From an uncultured delta proteobacterium (GTDB lineage: Bacteria; Desulfobacterota; Binatia; UBA9968), in the NCBI GenBank assembly GCA_963804165.1, contig CAWDPO010000017.1, positions 1 through 64,000 on the forward strand: 64,000 nt of DNA. The letters run 5' to 3'. Position 1 is the first letter of the stretch, and each line of letters starts with the position of its first letter. The translations under genes were made by a program, and so were the position numbers. The notes beneath the pieces were generated by a model that was not told the origin of the DNA, ran no database searches, and worked only from the letters and a program-made list of their open reading frames with translations. Positions 5,859 to 11,744 of the stretch are shown piece by piece.

Positions 5859-6272
5859 TCCACTCCTAACGCAACGGATATGCCACAAACCGGAGCCGAT
5901 GAAAATCAATAATTTATTCAGAAAAGGAGTGGCCAGCTGCCGCAATTTGACGACGGGGGCGTATCAAGTTTGATCCAGCAACCGACAGGAAACGTGTGCT
6001 TCCAGGCTCTAGAGACATTGAGTGATGAGGGTTGACGGCTTGACTGTCGAAATTTTCGGGGTCAGGCCCGCACGTCTAAACAATTTGGTGGATACCCTCG
6101 CGATTCGGTTAATCGTGCAAAAGCTCAGAGTGACTCTGATCCGACTTACACTCTGAACTGTCAATCGGGTTATTCTCCGGGTCCGTGCTGAGTCCTGGGT
6201 CCTGCGGAACTTCAACTCCGGCGACATTTCGGTTTTTTGTCGGCACCACGCGGCTGCGAAAAATACCTTCTC

Positions 6273-7229
6273 TCAGAGGACAACGGGTTTCTCGACCAGG
6301 CTTTCGGTAACGAATGGGAAATTGTCCGCGAGCCAAGCGTCGATCCCGCCTTCGAGCGGGCGAACCCTGGTGATTCCTTTGGCTCGCAGCAGCAGCGCCA
6401 CACGGGCGCTGGTCGCTTCGTTGGGTCACGAACAGTAGAGAACGACGTCGCGATCCCGGGGAATCTCTGCGTGGCGCTCTTCGATCTCTTCCATAGCTAT
6501 ACGAAGCGCGCCCGGGATCATTTGAGGAAACGCCTCGATATCCATGGGCTGGCGCAAGTCCACGATTGAAATGTTTTCTTGGGCCGTGAGTTTGTCCATG
6601 AGTTCTTTCGGAGTGATGCGCGCAATCCGCAGCCGACGAAGGAAGCGTCGGCGCTGGATGAACTTCCACAAAACATAAGCTGCCAAACTTCCGGCCAGGA
6701 CTGCGACCAGCCAACCGCCCCAGCGCAGTGCGATCTGCTCGAGTTGATCGCTGAAAATCAAGCCCAAGCTCATGACGGTGACGACCCAGAGGAGTCCGCC
6801 CAGGGAATCGAAGATCATGAAACGTCCCACGGGCATGCGAAAGATTCCCGCTAGAGACGGTGCCGCGGTATTCAGGCCGGGTATAAATTTGGCGACGAGC
6901 AAAGAATGGACGCCATGCCGGACGAAAAGGTTCTCAGTCCGCCGAACGCATGAGTCCGGTTCGAGAGAAATGCGGCACAGTAGCTTCAGTATGCGGCCGC
7001 CGCGGTAACGGCCTAGAGAGTACCAGAACAGGTCAGCCAAAATAACCGCGATGAACGCCAAGGCGACCGCGAACGTCAAATTCATTTTGCCGGCACGGGC
7101 CAGCGCGCCGGCCGCGATCAACAGAGGAGCAGCCGGGATAGGCAGACCCAGCTGTTCGAGCAGCACCCACCCGAACAGCAGAGCGTAGCCGTGCCTGATC
7201 AGGAAGTCGGCCGCTTGTTCCAGGCTCAA
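6273..7229 (-). CDS. DedA (VTT) + rhodanese-domain membrane protein, predicted selenoprotein (TGA 6426-6428 = Sec)
   Basis: DedA motifs EQLGLPIPA, AKFIPGL; rhodanese continues through the TGA as YCS-U-PNEATSARVALLLRAKGITRVRPLEGGIDAW...VVL* (stop 6273-6275); typical family motif YCxCPNE; may be fused to upstream gene, own start uncertain (TTG 7229 or CTG 7223). Confidence 0.85.
6393..6425 (-). promoter_or_regulatory. Bacterial SECIS-like hairpin after TGA 6426-6428
   Basis: UGA-14 nt-CAGCGCC-CGUGU-GGCGCUG: perfect 7-bp stem, loop 21 nt from UGA, G at loop position 2. Confidence 0.7.
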
Positions 7230-7631
7230 ATCCTTGAAGGACCTGGCCGCCTCGGGCAATACGCTCGCAAAAAAGAAGCTCAGGACAGTTAATATCAGCG
7301 CCGCAATCGCCGATTCGACATAGATCCAACGAGCCTGGGACCGGAGTCGTTTCTCGCTGCCTTCATCTCCGACCGGCTCTTCGGTGCCGTTCATCTTGCG
7401 CGCGCCGCGCGCGGCCAAAGCGACTCAGGTCTTTTTGCGAGCCTGGGAAACAGCGAGAGTTCCTATCCAGAACGGCAGAAATAGCGCCGCATACCACCCG
7501 CGGCTTACATCTGCATGCGCGAAAATGACCGCCAGGACGACGCCCATGGCGAGCATGGCGACACCCATGATCAGGCGCTTACGGGTTTCCTTCGGCCCGA
7601 TATTGGCGAGCTCTGCTTTTCCGACGTTCAT
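7230..7631 (-). CDS. Small membrane protein, predicted selenoprotein (TGA 7425-7427), in frame with the DedA-rhodanese gene
   Basis: ANIGPKETRKRLIMG-(2 TM)-QARKKT-U-VALAARGARKMNG...RSQARWIYVESAIAALILTVLSFFF; no other stop in this frame until the second TGA at 6426. Confidence 0.7.
7398..7424 (-). promoter_or_regulatory. Bacterial SECIS-like hairpin after TGA 7425-7427
   Basis: UGA-12 nt-GCGCGC-GGC-GCGCGC; loop 18 nt from UGA, starts with G. Confidence 0.6.
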
Positions 7632-7975
7632 CGAAACCTACCGGTGCTTTTATTCATTTTTTCGATCTCCGCTCGGGTTTCACTCTTAATAGCCGACATT
7701 CGTACATCCGGCTAGAGTGGCGTGAGCAGACCAGCCATATTTGTCTTTCTCTTTAGCAAGTGAATATGTCTCCCCGGGTCGTAGCAGCGCATATGTCCCG
7801 TCTGATCCCGTCTGAACCGAATCTTTAAGATACGACCGCGTTTGGCCGGGGCACAGTCTCAAGGGGTTCGATTTCGAAAACTCGAAGAACTAGCCCGAGA
7901 AAACGGTTTGAACATTTTGAACGGAGTGAAGCTTGAACGGGCTGCGTTATTTTATGAAAGATTCTAAAGAGTCCC

Positions 7976-8004
7976 TTGACACCTAAATTCTTCTGGAATA
8001 ATTT
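7976..8004 (+). promoter_or_regulatory. Sigma70-like promoter of the molybdoenzyme operon
   Basis: TTGACA-17 nt-TAATTT, about 40 bp upstream of ATG 8044. Confidence 0.55.
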
Positions 8005-8043
8005 TCGCGTGTACTTTAACAAGGCACGCTCGGGCATGGAAGC

Positions 8044-10365
8044 ATGACGACACCAGCGGACACCCGTAACCTCATCTCTCCAACTACTGAGCCCCGCTTC
8101 GACCTAAGAGATAAAGTCACCGGTCAGACAAGATACGTAGAGGACCTGCCGGCCCCTGCGGGCACGGCCTGGGCTGCCATGCTGCTCAGTCCGTACTCGC
8201 ACGCGCGCCTCCTCTCCATCGACTCTTCCAAAGCAGAGAAACTTCCCGGGGTCGTTGCGATATTGGACCGGGAACATCTTGACGGCCTGAGTCCCATGCT
8301 TCACACGCCTAGATATGAGTACATGGTCAAAACGTTGTCCGGTCTGCTGCCCGATGATCAGCCCTTGGTGGTTCTCGATAAGGTGCGCTTTCATGGCGAG
8401 TTGGTTGCCGCCGTGGCCGCCGATGACTTGCGCACCGCGGAAAAAGCCGTGGAGTTGATCGAGGTCAACTACGAGCCGATGGAACCCGTCTTCGATGCCG
8501 CCGCGGCGCTCAGCGCGTCTGCGCCGATTCTTCATGAAAGTAAAGGAACCAATCTGTTGTTGGAAGACAAATTGGAATGGGGCAACGTGGAACGCGGTTT
8601 CGGCGAAGCGGCGCGCATTTTCGAGGAAACCTACACGTCACCCTCCATGTTCCATCATCCCATGGAAAATGTCGGCGGGTGTGTCGCCCAATTTTTGAAC
8701 GACGAGGCCGTCATTTGGGGGACAACGGACGCGCCTTTTCGCGACAGCGATGAGATGGCGGACTTTTTTCGAATTGATCGCGAGCGCATGCGTTTCAGGG
8801 TGCCGTACGTCGGCGGCCATTTCGGAGCCAAAAACGTGACCAACTACATGCTCGCCGCGCTGTTTCTTTCGCGCAAAAGCGGGCGTCCCGTGAAAACGCT
8901 GCCGACCACGGAAGCCAGCTTCCGAACCACCGCCCGTCACGGCATGATCTACACGGCCAAAGCAGGCGTGAAATCCGACGGAACGCTCACGGCGCTCGAT
9001 GTCGAGATGATTATCGATACCGGTGCCTATACCACGGGCGCGGTTTTGGCGACGCACAATATGGTCATTTCGGCCTGGGGCTGCTACCGCATCCCCAACG
9101 TGCGCATCAAGGCGCGCTGCGCCTACACCAATAAAGTCCCTGCGAGCCACACACGCGCGACCGGCAAGTTTCAAACGACTTGGGCCGTTGAGTGCCTGAT
9201 CGACAGCGTCGCCCGAAAGATGGGTATCGATCCTACGGATTTCAGAAAGAAAAACGTTCTGCGCCGGGGCGACCTCGTCGTTGAGGGAGCGCCGCCGATG
9301 GACGCCGACTACCTGGAGATGATGGACAAGGCGACGGCGGCGATCAACTGGGATGGACATTCCTCCATGGAGCCCCAGAGCCGGTCAGACTCGAACTCGC
9401 TGTCTCTGCCCGCGAAAGGAAGAGCCCTGGTCCTCACTTTGAGAAATGGCAATCAGGGAGGCGGACGGGCTTACGCCATGGCCACCGTCGATGTTCGCGG
9501 CAACGTCAAGATCCATCACAACGCCCCTGATCCGGGCCAAGGAATCTACAATTTAATCTCAATCATTGCCGCGAAAACTCTGGAGCTGCCGCGCAGCCAA
9601 ATCATCGTTGGCGAGCCGGACACGGCCGTCAGCTTGCCCTTCAGCGGCGTCAATGCCCAACGAACCACGATTCAATTGGGAAATGCCGTCAAGAACGCTT
9701 GTGAAAATTTGCAGCAGGAATTGGTCAACGTCGCCTGCGAAACCAAAGGGGGAAATCCGAGCGAGTGGCGGGTCGCAGACGGTCGATTATGGCGCGCCGA
9801 ACAGAGCTTTTCCTTCGGTGACATAGCAGCCGGCATCAAGACCCTTGGCGATAACTCCGTATTGAAAGCCATCGGCTCTTACAGCCCGCCGTCGGGCCGA
9901 AGTGCTTTTGGCGGCTTGGACCACTGGGCGGCGAGTGCGGCAGCCGTGGAGTTGGAAGTCGATCGTGAGACCGGGGAGATCAAGGTGCTGCAATATTCCG
10001 TGGTGTCGGACGCGGGGAAGGTGCTTCATTTCAATTCAGCCAAGGGACAGCTCGAGGGAGGCGCCGTGATGGGTTTCGGTCACGCGCTATTCGAAGAGAC
10101 CGTATATCAAGACGGACAGTTATTGAATGGCGACCCGTTTCAATATCGGCTGCCGACCATGGAGGATATTCCGGAGAATTTCCGCACGATCATCCTCGAG
10201 AACGAAGACGGCCCGGGGCCCTTCGGCGCCAAGGGGATGTCGCAGACCTCGATCACGGCGGTCGCGCCGGCCGTCGGCAATGCCGTTTACGACGCCCTCG
10301 GGGTCCGCATAAGATCGGTGCCGATCACCCCGGAAAAAATTCTGAAAGCTCTAGGGAAAATCTAA
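8044..10365 (+). CDS. Xanthine dehydrogenase/CoxL-family molybdopterin-binding subunit
   Basis: DKVTGQTRY, SPYSHARL, VGGHFGAK, GQLEGGAVMGFG, GPFGAKG, VPITPEKIL; no CODH AYRCSFR motif. Confidence 0.92.
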   Translation: MTTPADTRNLISPTTEPRFDLRDKVTGQTRYVEDLPAPAGTAWAAMLLSPYSHARLLSIDSSKAEKLPGVVAILDREHLDGLSPMLHTPRYEYMVKTLSGLLPDDQPLVVLDKVRFHGELVAAVAADDLRTAEKAVELIEVNYEPMEPVFDAAAALSASAPILHESKGTNLLLEDKLEWGNVERGFGEAARIFEETYTSPSMFHHPMENVGGCVAQFLNDEAVIWGTTDAPFRDSDEMADFFRIDRERMRFRVPYVGGHFGAKNVTNYMLAALFLSRKSGRPVKTLPTTEASFRTTARHGMIYTAKAGVKSDGTLTALDVEMIIDTGAYTTGAVLATHNMVISAWGCYRIPNVRIKARCAYTNKVPASHTRATGKFQTTWAVECLIDSVARKMGIDPTDFRKKNVLRRGDLVVEGAPPMDADYLEMMDKATAAINWDGHSSMEPQSRSDSNSLSLPAKGRALVLTLRNGNQGGGRAYAMATVDVRGNVKIHHNAPDPGQGIYNLISIIAAKTLELPRSQIIVGEPDTAVSLPFSGVNAQRTTIQLGNAVKNACENLQQELVNVACETKGGNPSEWRVADGRLWRAEQSFSFGDIAAGIKTLGDNSVLKAIGSYSPPSGRSAFGGLDHWAASAAAVELEVDRETGEIKVLQYSVVSDAGKVLHFNSAKGQLEGGAVMGFGHALFEETVYQDGQLLNGDPFQYRLPTMEDIPENFRTIILENEDGPGPFGAKGMSQTSITAVAPAVGNAVYDALGVRIRSVPITPEKILKALGKI

Positions 10366-11232
10366 GTGCTGCAGCCGTTCCGAGTATTGACTCCCGCCAA
10401 CGTGGAAGAAGCTTCGGCGGAGCTGGTTCGTCTGGGCGAGAGGGCGACGATCTATGCGGGGGGCGCCGAGCTGATTCTTCTCCTCCGCTACGGAATGGTC
10501 CACGCGGAGTACCTGATCAACATTAAAGGCATCGACGGATTGAGCGAAATCGGTTGGGACGGTCGCACGGTTCAAATCGGGGCAACCGTCACACACCGCC
10601 GTCTGGAAACCGATTCTCTGATTCGCGAGCGCTTGCCATTGCTCGCCGATGCCGAGTCTCGAATCGCCAATATCCGGGTGCGGAATCAGGGCACGCTGGG
10701 CGGAAATCTTTGTTTCAACGATCCCCATTCCGATCCCGGAACCGCCCTCCTGCTGCACGAAGCGGAGGTCGTGCTCGCGCGCAAAGACGGCCTCAGACAG
10801 ATCCCATTGTCCGATTTTTTATCCGGCATGTACTCGACCGGGCTCGAGCCGGGCGAGCTCCTGCAAAAAGTGTTCGTGGCGCCCTTGCCCGTCGGCTGGG
10901 GCGCCGCTTACCTTCGAGTTCATCGCTACCAGCGCCCCACGCTTAACGTCGCTGTCGCCGCGAAACTGCAAAACGGCGCCGTAGAAGACGCGCGGCTGGC
11001 CGTCGGCTGCGTCGGGCCCAAGCCACTGAGGTTATCAGAACTGGAAGCAAAAATTCGCGGTGAAAAGCTAGATGGCGCGAAACGGATTTGCGCCGATTCG
11101 AAGCAGTACCTCAAGGATAAGCTAGCGCCGATAGACGATCTTCTCGGTTCGGCCGACTATAAAATTTACATGGCGGCGGTGCTTCTGAGCAGGGCGCTCA
11201 GCCAAGCCGGCCGAAGCAATGGAAAGGGTTGA
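10366..11232 (+). CDS. XDH/CoxM-family FAD-binding subunit
   Basis: YAGGAEL, IGATVTH, IRVRNQGTLGGN, DPHSD, GSADYK. Confidence 0.92.
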   Translation: MLQPFRVLTPANVEEASAELVRLGERATIYAGGAELILLLRYGMVHAEYLINIKGIDGLSEIGWDGRTVQIGATVTHRRLETDSLIRERLPLLADAESRIANIRVRNQGTLGGNLCFNDPHSDPGTALLLHEAEVVLARKDGLRQIPLSDFLSGMYSTGLEPGELLQKVFVAPLPVGWGAAYLRVHRYQRPTLNVAVAAKLQNGAVEDARLAVGCVGPKPLRLSELEAKIRGEKLDGAKRICADSKQYLKDKLAPIDDLLGSADYKIYMAAVLLSRALSQAGRSNGKG

Positions 11233-11744
11233 TGATGGCCGATCCGGTAGCGCCGATTGCTACGCTGCAAAATTTCGCGATCGAGATCACCGTCAATGGT
11301 ACGACGTGGAAGGGAGACGTGCCTGCCGAGGAAGTGCTCCTGGACTTTTTGCGATATCGCCTGAAGCTCACCGGAACGAAACGTTCTTGCGAGTCCGAGG
11401 TCTGCGGGGCCTGTACCGTTCTCGTAGATGGCAAGCCGATAAGTTCGTGCAGCTATCTCGCCTTCGAGGCAAACGGAAAATCCGTCACGACCATCGAAGG
11501 GTTGGCCTCTGGCGGGGAGCTCGATCCATTACAGGAGGCGTTTATTAGAAACATGGGCGCCCAGTGCGGGTTCTGCACATCGGGTCAAATCATGGCCGCA
11601 AAGGCGATCCTCTTGGATAACCCGTCTCCCACCTACGAGCAAATCTCGCAATGGCTGAATGGAAACATATGCCGGTGCGGCTGCTACCCGGCCATAGCGA
11701 AGTCGATTCTGGAGGCCGCCGAGGAATACAAAAATCGCCGCTGA
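11229..11744 (+). CDS. XDH/CoxS-family [2Fe-2S] subunit
   Basis: CESEVCGACTVLVDG..SC; QCGFCTSG; NICRCGCY. Confidence 0.95.
   Translation: MMMADPVAPIATLQNFAIEITVNGTTWKGDVPAEEVLLDFLRYRLKLTGTKRSCESEVCGACTVLVDGKPISSCSYLAFEANGKSVTTIEGLASGGELDPLQEAFIRNMGAQCGFCTSGQIMAAKAILLDNPSPTYEQISQWLNGNICRCGCYPAIAKSILEAAEEYKNRR

Follow-up and report, generated by a model that had tools for sequence, protein, structure and literature searches.

On the minus strand of a 64,000-nucleotide (nt) stretch of genomic DNA from an uncultured soil bacterium of the Binatia (hereafter the window, meaning the whole stretch), we identified a gene that probably encodes one fused membrane protein in which two in-frame UGA codons are both decoded as selenocysteine (Sec). 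The predicted polytopic inner-membrane chain of 452 residues joins an N-terminal module of three transmembrane (TM) helices, a DedA/VTT membrane core and a C-terminal rhodanese domain. The window is the first 64 kb of contig C17 (CAWDPO010000017.1) of a 7.5-Mb metagenome-assembled genome (MAG; GCA_963804165.1, 46 contigs, 80.9% complete, 5.0% contamination). Near-identical database proteins are labelled "Candidatus Binatia bacterium" or "Deltaproteobacteria bacterium."

A continuous frame with two internal TGA codons

The gene (7631..6276) starts with an ATG at 7631-7629 and ends at a TGA stop at 6275-6273. An earlier interpretation made from the letters alone (the sequence-only reading) had proposed that this frame is interrupted by only two TGA codons and gives 452 amino acids (aa) when they are read through. 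The sequence bears this out: the only internal stops are TGA at 7427-7425 (codon 69, TGA1) and TGA at 6428-6426 (codon 402, TGA2). Under translation table 11 the locus appears as two open reading frames (ORFs), at 7425..7631 (68 aa) and 6426..7418 (330 aa, from a TTG start at codon 72). The gene had also been expected to escape standard gene callers, and it does, being cut into pieces of 68 aa and 319-333 aa. In standard annotation the gene thus becomes a "hypothetical protein" of 68 aa plus a shortened "DedA" whose rhodanese domain is cut off partway, and there are hundreds of such soil metagenome records.

Both named domains score above their Pfam gathering cut-offs. PF09335 (DedA/VTT) matches residues 165-290 with 56.8 bits (cut-off 33.9), and PF00581 (rhodanese) matches residues 340-435 with 50.9 bits (cut-off 22.2) in an alignment that spans codon 402. 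The 452-residue chain has 13 fold matches in the Protein Data Bank (PDB) at E<=1e-3, every one of them a rhodanese domain. An AlphaFold2 model of the entire chain, built from a 69-row alignment, has a mean predicted local distance difference test score of 89.8 and a predicted template modelling score of 0.73. It places helices of the N-terminal module at residues 13-40, 44-66 and 90-132, with residue 69 in a short break past the second helix. Counting Cys and Sec together, the protein has such residues only at positions 69, 219, 228, 400 and 402.

Coding constraint persists in frame past each TGA. Ratios of nonsynonymous to synonymous substitution rates (dN/dS) were calculated by the NG86 method for six complete genus orthologs (15 pairs). 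The ratio is 0.33 before TGA1 (codons 1-68), 0.17 between TGA1 and the next ATG (codons 70-78) and 0.22 over codons 70-120, where the two shifted frames give 1.64 and 1.48. The linker (codons 121-137) shows the weakest constraint of all segments, at 0.46. Values are 0.23 for the DedA core (codons 138-330), 0.09 for the rhodanese codons before TGA2 (331-401) and 0.17 for those after it (403-452).

The second TGA and the C-x-U rhodanese

TGA2 falls in the rhodanese active-site loop and is almost certainly read as Sec. A search of 400 other genomes of the same phylum in the Genome Taxonomy Database (GTDB) for DedA-rhodanese proteins gave a match at E<=1e-30 in 24 of them. The comparison set comprises 25 full or nearly full sequences: the window protein, 23 from the phylum search and L020, from a genome of the same genus. 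Left out were L056 and L058 (two frames), L057 and L061 (DedA part only) and L060 (a contig-end fragment). All 25 sequences read [L/F/T]-[Y/F]-C-x-[TGA or Cys]-P, with TGA in 20 and Cys in five (L037, L039, L040, L041 and L043), and in all 25 about 50 conserved residues continue past this column. With TGA in 20 of 25, most DedA-rhodanese proteins in this sample from the phylum are probably selenoproteins. The sequence-only reading had suggested checking homologs for Cys or TGA at both TGA positions, and both columns behave in this way (5 Cys and 20 TGA of 25 for TGA2, and Cys in 41 of 42 for TGA1, described below). Its statement that DedA-rhodanese fusions typically read YCxCPNE does not fit this sample, in which only five of 25 have C-x-C and 20 have C-x-TGA.

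Bacterial Sec insertion sequence (SECIS) elements are stem-loops shortly downstream of the UGA with a G in the apical loop. Folding confirmed hairpins whose loops lie 18 and 21 nt after TGA1 and TGA2, respectively, with a G at loop position 1 or 2, as had been noted. The TGA2 hairpin has a 7-bp upper stem, a lower stem and the loop CGUGU, which begins 21 nt past the UGA and has its G at loop position 2. For the 60-nt stretch the fold z-score is -0.81, with an equal or better fold in 40 of 200 shuffled sequences. Every Sec form keeps the hairpin in the same register, with 91.2% of cells paired (20 sequences, 19 distinct), and one pair changes on both sides, from C-G to U-A, in two sequences. 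The five Cys forms have 66.7% of cells paired, and four of them have lost the central pair. Since there is little covariation and the sequences share ancestry, we treat this comparison as supporting rather than decisive. The proposal of SECIS-like hairpins is supported for TGA2, where the structure is kept in Sec forms and decayed in Cys forms, and is weak for TGA1, since Cys homologs there form similar hairpins by chance.

The best NCBIfam match of the domain is NF041203, "rhodanese-related (seleno)protein," at 82 bits (78.3 in a six-frame search), below the curated cut-off of 115. The C-x-U motif of that family is present at the active-site loop, as L-Y-C-S-U. Against PDB 6mxv the alignment needs no gap: U402 coincides with the catalytic Cys, and a loop of the standard six residues comes next. 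In alignments to 5ve3 and 3tp9 it is C400 that coincides with the catalytic Cys, with a two-residue gap. The nucleophile would therefore be U402 or C400, depending on the alignment.

Contigs of four soil metagenome runs pile up over window positions 6394-6438, which have the highest summed depth in all four runs, with loose contig ends at 6394/6395 and 6428-6439. We infer that a block of about 40 nt, comprising Cys-x-TGA and the hairpin, is common to other soil-metagenome genes at >=85% identity. These are presumably other C-x-U rhodanese selenoprotein genes.

The first TGA and a three-helix membrane family

TGA1 is very probably read as Sec as well. A word-indexed search with residues 1-120 returned 677 close relatives, and 117 of the best 120 are exactly 68 aa long, that is, cut at TGA1. 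When 50%-identity representatives were searched exhaustively with the N-terminal module, 561 proteins were found at E<=1e-3. Most of the best 150 are 117-130 aa long and align to query positions ~6-120 unbroken across residue 69. In 42 aligned homologs the codon-69 column holds Cys in 41 and Asp in one. Past this column the homologs continue with V-x-L-A-A-R-G-x-R-N-x-D-x-G-x-E-P and a third hydrophobic helix, and end at query positions 121-134 (median 122). A 43-row profile of the family matches the window over the full length of the family (E 1.3e-45), and the invariant residues are N10, I11, G12, R19, C69, A73 and G76. Comparison of the family with Pfam and NCBIfam gave no match. The sequence-only reading had described a small TM protein here. 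Its membrane nature holds, and a 68-aa peptide with a tail does not, since the module is a member of a three-helix family of about 122 aa, fused in frame.

Two further sets of sequences bear on this position. Distant representatives of 67-73 aa (49-62% identity) likewise end exactly at the codon-69 column. In one of these lineages, a metagenome contig (L087) carries a stand-alone three-helix gene with TGA at the homologous codon; past it, the conserved motif and the third helix follow in frame, the gene has its own stop after 122 codons, and an unrelated gene comes next. Sec forms of the family thus appear to occur both fused and stand-alone, and the family is a candidate new selenoprotein family. 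Read in this way, the gene adds a Sec member, and L087 a stand-alone one, to a large three-helix family without a Pfam model.

The hairpin after TGA1 has a 6-bp all-GC stem and the loop GGC, which begins 18 nt past the UGA and has its G at loop position 1. It is identical in all eight genus loci. In L087 a hairpin with the 5-nt loop GGUCA can be placed by eye in the same register, and the minimum free energy structure from RNAfold differs there. Given the chance GC hairpins of Cys homologs (see below), we give the TGA1 hairpin little weight, as it does not discriminate. The fold energies of both hairpins are not above chance, and the case for Sec rests on comparative evidence.

A search of the 400 other genomes of the phylum gave no member of the three-helix family, which may therefore have been acquired laterally. 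Cys members were gathered with one exact peptide pattern, and this biased sample includes Acidobacteriota, Gemmatimonadota and Trueperaceae among others. Among 120 matches listed of 492 longer ones, no fused form with Cys at both positions was found. Two of the listed longer matches span residue 69: P0401, with Arg at this position, and P0402, with an internal deletion. P0402 (280 aa, 17 member sequences) is a variant of the fused gene without residues ~35-70, that is, without helix 2 and the Sec codon, and is joined at a repeated V-V-L-A. Sec69 may have been lost here in a natural deletion, or the join may be an artefact of assembly. A search of the ESM Atlas with a natural Cys homolog (P0248) returned unnamed clusters only.

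We considered and rejected an assignment of the module to the YgaP-like TM family (PF11127): the match has E 2.7, three of 43 family members reach E<=0.01 (best 0.0014), and hhalign gives a probability of 0.5 and E 0.11. A PF11127 match above the cut-off was seen at another locus (L083; G025:C1:142086-142226, minus strand), with one in-frame TGA in the region of the first helix. It may be a small membrane selenoprotein candidate or a pseudogene.

Selenocysteine machinery and other rhodanese selenoprotein candidates

The genome encodes tRNA-Sec, SelA, SelB and SelD, and the check on selA, selB, selC and selD that had been suggested is thereby answered. A tRNA-SeC gene lies at C24:201780-201874. 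In a profile search of the genome, selA, selB and selD each score above the curated cut-off. The genes selD, selB and selA are adjacent at C16:139949-144339 (minus strand) in an apparent operon, and selD has an in-frame TGA of its own. ARAGORN also reported a tRNA of undetermined identity at C10:175199-175283 (minus strand), with the two-base anticodon call "(ga)."

A second candidate Sec fusion was observed in the same genome (G000) at C40:202538-204202 (minus strand; locus L089:1486-3147). This 554-aa frame combines Na_H_Exchanger (35-401) and Rhodanese (445-542) domains. Its in-frame TGA lies in F-C-A-U-P-D-E-A-T-S and is followed by the same GCGCC/GGCGC hairpin as in the window gene. Ortholog-like matches with one TGA each occur in G011, G017 and G018. 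The C-x-U rhodanese module is thus joined, as read from these frames, to at least two transporter cores (DedA and Na+/H+ exchanger) in one genome. At C13:93672-94166 (plus strand) and C46:282561-283004 (minus strand) lie two small ORFs that encode a rhodanese domain, begin with a hydrophobic, signal-like N terminus and contain an in-frame TGA. The motif is L-Y-U-A-C in one of them, where Sec and Cys have exchanged places compared with the C-S-U of the window; in the other, which reads T-U-G-T-G-A-S, the TGA occupies the canonical catalytic position. The genome therefore has at least four candidate rhodanese-domain selenoproteins.

A probable in-frame fusion and its alternatives

The gene appears to be a lineage-specific, in-frame fusion of a three-helix gene of about 122 aa and a DedA-rhodanese gene, which are separate elsewhere. 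Because the three-helix relatives stop after helix 3, we read the single frame as a fusion specific to this lineage. Stand-alone DedA-rhodanese genes start about six codons before the motif F-L-x-x-H-G-Y, in most cases with an ATG that follows a stop codon. In the clade of the window a CTG replaces this ancestral ATG, and the three-helix module leads into the DedA part without a break in frame.

Of 24 other genomes of the same genus that were searched, five (G006, G011, G015, G017 and G024) keep the whole frame and both TGAs, at 83-90% identity. In G020 the contig ends after residue 218, and G013 has a fragment at a contig start. Linker indels in frame-preserving sequences are multiples of three, as in a 9-nt deletion in L016. 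The DedA part was called in metagenomes at a length of 319-333 aa in 116 of the best 120 cases, with an in-frame start just behind TGA1 and an end at TGA2; the other four calls are shorter, P0241 among them. Contigs from four further soil runs bridge TGA1, the junction and TGA2. None of the differences listed in these contigs is on either TGA codon (there are 213 further rows beyond those listed), and the only indel seen more than once is an in-frame insertion of 9 nt at 6729. Three libraries labelled metatranscriptomic also gave contigs over the gene, but DNA can be present in libraries of this kind, and we do not take the coverage as proof of transcription.

The sequence-only reading had cautioned that loss of one base from the homopolymer at 7269-7274 (T6 on the coding strand) would instead give two coupled genes overlapping at TTGA (7226-7229), each with one Sec. 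The run and the TTGA exist as described, and a deletion would end the upstream frame at that TGA. No length change is present in any of eight ortholog loci or in the contigs of the four runs, which leaves the caution unsupported. A programmed frameshift at this site was also considered and was rejected: the run is interrupted by a substitution in L015 and shows no length variation.

Several points weigh against a fused double selenoprotein as the main product. Selenium incorporation and the full-length product are predicted from the DNA. Two UGA-Sec events on one mRNA should cut the yield, and products of 68 and 401 aa are likely by-products. The TGA1 hairpin has a z-score of +1.41, with 190 of 200 shuffles of the 60-nt stretch folding at least as well, and in Cys homologs from GC-rich genomes the A-A-R-G codons also fold into GC hairpins, usually at a distance of 11-14 nt from the Cys codon. 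Low-quality singletons read Leu (P0002) or Arg (P0401, noisy) at position 69. In G018 (L019) an 8-nt linker deletion puts the two parts in different frames, and the metagenome protein P0241 has a frame break of the same type, so the fusion is not universal in the clade. The same-genus genome G005 (L020) has the DedA-rhodanese gene alone. This genome, which also supplies one row in the 25-sequence and hairpin counts, is flagged as unpublished, and publication of its data needs the permission of the depositors. Finally, the in-frame TTG at codon 135 could permit a separate start of the DedA part.

A rival view is that the locus yields two selenoproteins mainly as separate chains, either because ribosomes start internally at or near the TTG of codon 135 or because a protease cuts the linker, the in-frame state being an accidental stop loss. 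We consider this improbable. Both parts are known as stand-alone genes, but with no stop codon between them here, ribosomes that pass TGA1 must enter the DedA part, and a fused chain results whenever Sec69 is inserted. The linker is the segment with the weakest constraint, and G018 and P0241 break at the junction while the DedA-rhodanese frame is still open from the TTG. The frame is nevertheless intact in five of six complete genus orthologs and in 116 of the best 120 metagenome calls, and where it is preserved the linker indels are multiples of three. A purine-rich AAGGA stands just before the TTG, but at only 1-2 nt from it, and the ancestral ATG has been lost. The three-helix topology is also compatible with a fusion, as described below.

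It is very unlikely that TGA1 is an ordinary stop, giving a 68-aa two-helix peptide and then an N-extended DedA-rhodanese selenoprotein from the ATG at 7397-7395 (codon 79) or from the TTG of codon 72. Gene callers do produce this arrangement (68 aa in 117 of the best 120 calls, and DedA calls of 322 or 330 aa), yet full-length homologs align without a gap across the TGA and have Cys there in 41 of 42. The ATG lies 30 nt downstream of TGA1, but the nine codons up to it vary mostly synonymously (dN/dS 0.17), and Leu codon 72 is TTG, CTC or CTG in orthologs and so cannot be a conserved start. A 68-aa form without Cys does not occur among the distant homologs, except in those cut at the same column. 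The hairpin after TGA1 is not distinctive, but in stand-alone L087 the third helix and the stop of the gene lie beyond the TGA and are reached only by read-through. That the TGAs are assembly or sequencing errors or inactivating mutations is extremely improbable, although the genome is a MAG of 80.9% completeness and 5.0% contamination, since both recur at the same columns in independent genomes, hundreds of metagenome calls stop exactly at them, contigs of four further runs bridge them, and dN/dS is well below 1 on either side of each.

Taking the two codons together, we regard it as quite probable that both are Sec codons, and the main product is likely to be the fused 452-residue double selenoprotein, with separate or truncated products also possible. 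To our knowledge, proteins with two Sec in separate domains are rare.

DedA core, predicted membrane topology and five conserved residues

The DedA core departs from that of E. coli YqjA at positions essential in the latter. In the alignment, E39 of YqjA corresponds to E159 and is kept, whereas D51 is replaced by Ala, R130 by Lys (K249) and R136 by Asn (N255). The changes at D51, R130 and R136 occur in all seven aligned family rows, and L037 has Asp at the E39 column. Scores against the UptA equivalog (62.8, cut-off 250) and PRK10847 (59.9, cut-off 236) are far below threshold, and the core is not of the YqjA/UptA type by these profiles. A PDB sequence search with the DedA core gave nothing relevant, and the membrane part had no PDB match.

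The core instead has a feature of its own, C219-X8-C228. This pair is conserved in all 24 other DedA-rhodanese sequences of the 25-sequence set, and is absent from the two other DedA paralogs of the genome. In the YqjA alignment, C219 and C228 are flanked by the positions that correspond to V99 and L117. A map of YqjA by the substituted cysteine accessibility method (preprint 10.1101/2021.10.18.464800) places this V99-L117 loop in the cytoplasm, A20, in the stretch before the first re-entrant hairpin, in the periplasm, and the C-terminal end (G217) in the cytoplasm. The last TM helix of the window protein aligns with the C-terminal helix of YqjA.

In the three-helix family, Lys and Arg residues together average 4.7 for the N-terminal segment and 7.4 for loop 2, against 0.8 for loop 1 and 0.2 for the tail. 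This distribution predicts an N terminus inside, a cytoplasmic Sec loop and a C terminus outside. Helices 1 and 2 would return the chain to the cytoplasm at U69, and helix 3 would take it to the periplasm, where the DedA core starts. As helix 3 ends on the side where the DedA core begins, the topology fits a fusion. U69, C219-X8-C228 and C400-x-U402 are accordingly all predicted to face the cytoplasm. All five Cys/Sec residues are conserved in their families. This set offers mutational handles on whether some DedA proteins handle sulfur or selenium compounds, an idea raised much earlier for selenite in Cupriavidus. The link between a DedA protein and selenite in Cupriavidus metallidurans, which the sequence-only reading had mentioned, is in print (Ledgham et al., 2005, as cited in PMC8679861).

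Possible function

The sequence-only reading had proposed a module for Se/S transfer or redox, a role that is still hypothetical. Three separately conserved chalcogen sites joined in one chain favor a thiol/selenol relay at the cytoplasmic face. In this scheme Sec402 of the rhodanese, with C400 as its resolving partner, would take up a sulfane-sulfur or selenium atom or an oxidizing equivalent and exchange it with the C-X8-C loop and the membrane-proximal Sec69. The relay would thereby couple chalcogen transfer or redox to whatever the divergent DedA core moves or senses. In this specific form the proposal is tentative, and we would put it at somewhat less than an even chance. Among solved structures, the nearest fold matches are to the rhodanese domains of persulfide dioxygenase fusions, CoA-persulfide reductases and YgaP.

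Neither genomic context nor the core itself lends the relay support. Without two of the four charged residues essential in YqjA, the DedA core may not transport at all. Among the 52 ORFs beside 19 stand-alone DedA-rhodanese genes, no family occurs in more than two. Neighbors of the three-helix Cys homologs vary across 17 genomic loci, with FtsX and HlyD efflux genes upstream in some Vicinamibacterales, and the window gene's own neighbors are not syntenic in ortholog loci.

An alternative that is compatible with the same gene structure, and which we consider possible though rather unlikely, is that the C-x-U rhodanese senses redox state or sulfane sulfur in the cytoplasm and so gates membrane transporters, and is not a catalytic station for a transported chalcogen substrate. 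A near-identical C-x-U rhodanese with its hairpin is present on a Na+/H+ exchanger in the same genome, no sulfur or selenium genes are conserved beside DedA-rhodanese genes, and the core lacks the two YqjA-essential charges. The nearest solved folds, however, handle sulfane sulfur catalytically, and a relay accounts more readily than a sensor for the conserved C-X8-C and Sec69.

A bolder version of the relay, which we consider doubtful, is a hand-over machine. Here the DedA core would deliver selenium or sulfane sulfur to the cytoplasmic face, where it would be passed from Sec69 to C-X8-C and then to C-x-Sec as Se-S or Se-Se adducts. If this were true, the protein would be a DedA with a chalcogen instead of a lipid substrate, and the three-helix module would define a new membrane selenoprotein family, with 561 relatives at E<=1e-3, in which Cys or Sec is the working residue.

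Comparison with known systems

CxU rhodanese selenoproteins and DedA-rhodanese fusions are already known. The double-Sec fusion would be a new architecture and the Sec-containing three-helix family is a candidate new selenoprotein family, and the rhodanese site is a new fused relative of a known kind of selenoprotein. A recent survey (PMC13188914; 2026, May) lists 119 prokaryotic selenoprotein families and subfamilies in its Table 1, including rhodanese form 3, TsoB and YeeE/YedE. That table contains no DedA/VTT protein and nothing like the three-helix family, although the supplements of the underlying surveys may contain them. A full-text literature search found no paper joining DedA, selenoprotein and rhodanese, and none joining selenoprotein and Binatia. 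Among the matches listed for DedA with selenocysteine, none was relevant by title or abstract.

The closest relative is rhodanese_LYCAU form 3 (NF041203) of that table. Both have the rhodanese fold with Sec two residues past a conserved Cys, and both are without an assigned function. NF041203 describes stand-alone proteins of about 126 aa, whereas the window domain is the C-terminal part of a 452-aa membrane protein and scores below the cut-off. The same C-x-U rhodanese appears as "COG0607 form 2" in a listing in PMC9312934.

DedA COG0586-rhodanese fusions are reported in PMC10127716, whose authors call the connection between the domains unclear and present a COG0586 subfamily proposed to flip undecaprenyl phosphate. 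The window gene has the same PF09335 and PF00581 architecture, and the passages of that paper dealing with these fusions mention no selenocysteine for them. Compared with YqjA, the family described here differs by the D51 to Ala and R136 to Asn changes and by its unique C-X8-C loop. A sample of DedA-rhodanese proteins that are mostly Sec-containing bears on what the rhodanese does on a DedA protein, the question raised in that part of PMC10127716.

Three further systems offer partial parallels. TsoB, a rhodanese/DsbD fusion-like protein (NF045694), likewise combines rhodanese with a membrane redox module and has two Sec per chain. As its entry in PMC13188914 describes it, the partner domain is different, the motif is UxxxxU, and both Sec are in one motif, unlike in the window protein. 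E. coli YgaP (PDB 5hbo, 5hbl) also has a rhodanese tethered at the cytoplasmic face of the inner membrane, and its TM module (PF11127) resembles that of the window in having N-x-G...R at the start and a Cys after helix 2. The domain order of YgaP is reversed, it is without Sec, and homology of the window module to PF11127 is unsupported. The thiosulfate transporter selenoprotein YeeE/YedE (PF04143, motif GUxSG), as listed in PMC13188914, is a precedent for Sec in a polytopic membrane protein that handles chalcogens. According to that listing it differs from the window protein in having an unrelated fold, one Sec and no rhodanese in the chain.

Feature coordinates and flanking sequence

Table 1. 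Features of the fused gene and its leader in the window (columns: feature, position, strand, basis or remark).
Whole gene, 452 sense codons including two UGA as probable Sec, plus terminal TGA 6273-6275	6273..7631	-	five same-genus genomes, 83-90% identity
N-terminal three-helix membrane module, codons 1-125	7257..7631	-	motifs NIGPxERRxR and QAxxxT-C/U-VxLAARG
TGA1, predicted Sec69	7425..7427	-	Cys column in homologs
Hairpin after TGA1, candidate SECIS 1, GCGCGC / GGC / GCGCGC	7398..7412	-	
T6 run, Phe-Phe-Phe codons	7269..7274	- (T6 on coding strand)	
Junction/linker, codons 126-137	7221..7256	-	TTG 7227-7229 (codon 135) inside, possible internal start
DedA/VTT core, codons 138-330 (Pfam match 165-290)	6642..7220	-	PF09335
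C219-X8-C228 loop within the DedA core	6948..6977	-	
Last TM helix, then Arg-rich linker to rhodanese	6657..6722	-	hydropathy and model helix 294-336
Rhodanese domain, codons 340-435	6327..6614	-	PF00581
C400-S401-U402 active-site motif (TGC, TCG, TGA2)	6426..6434	-	
Hairpin after TGA2, candidate SECIS 2 (upper stem-loop 6393-6411)	6385..6420	-	
5' leader before ATG, conserved	7632..7718	-	genus ortholog alignment

The leader of about 90 nt aligns in most genus ortholog loci, and sequence farther upstream of it and downstream of the gene does not. An Rfam scan of 5900-8100 gave no match. A promoter scan found no sigma-70-like site, and its four terminator-like matches were not above those in shuffled sequences. 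The leader contains an inverted repeat, TAGCCG ... CGGCTA, and a second repeat, ATCGAAA ... TTTCGAT, flanks the start codon.

Upstream of the gene and divergent from it, three consecutive ORFs (773, 288 and 171 aa) occupy window positions 8044-11744 on the plus strand; they are not syntenic in the ortholog loci. By eye, the 773-aa ORF has the look of a molybdopterin-binding aldehyde oxidase/xanthine dehydrogenase subunit.

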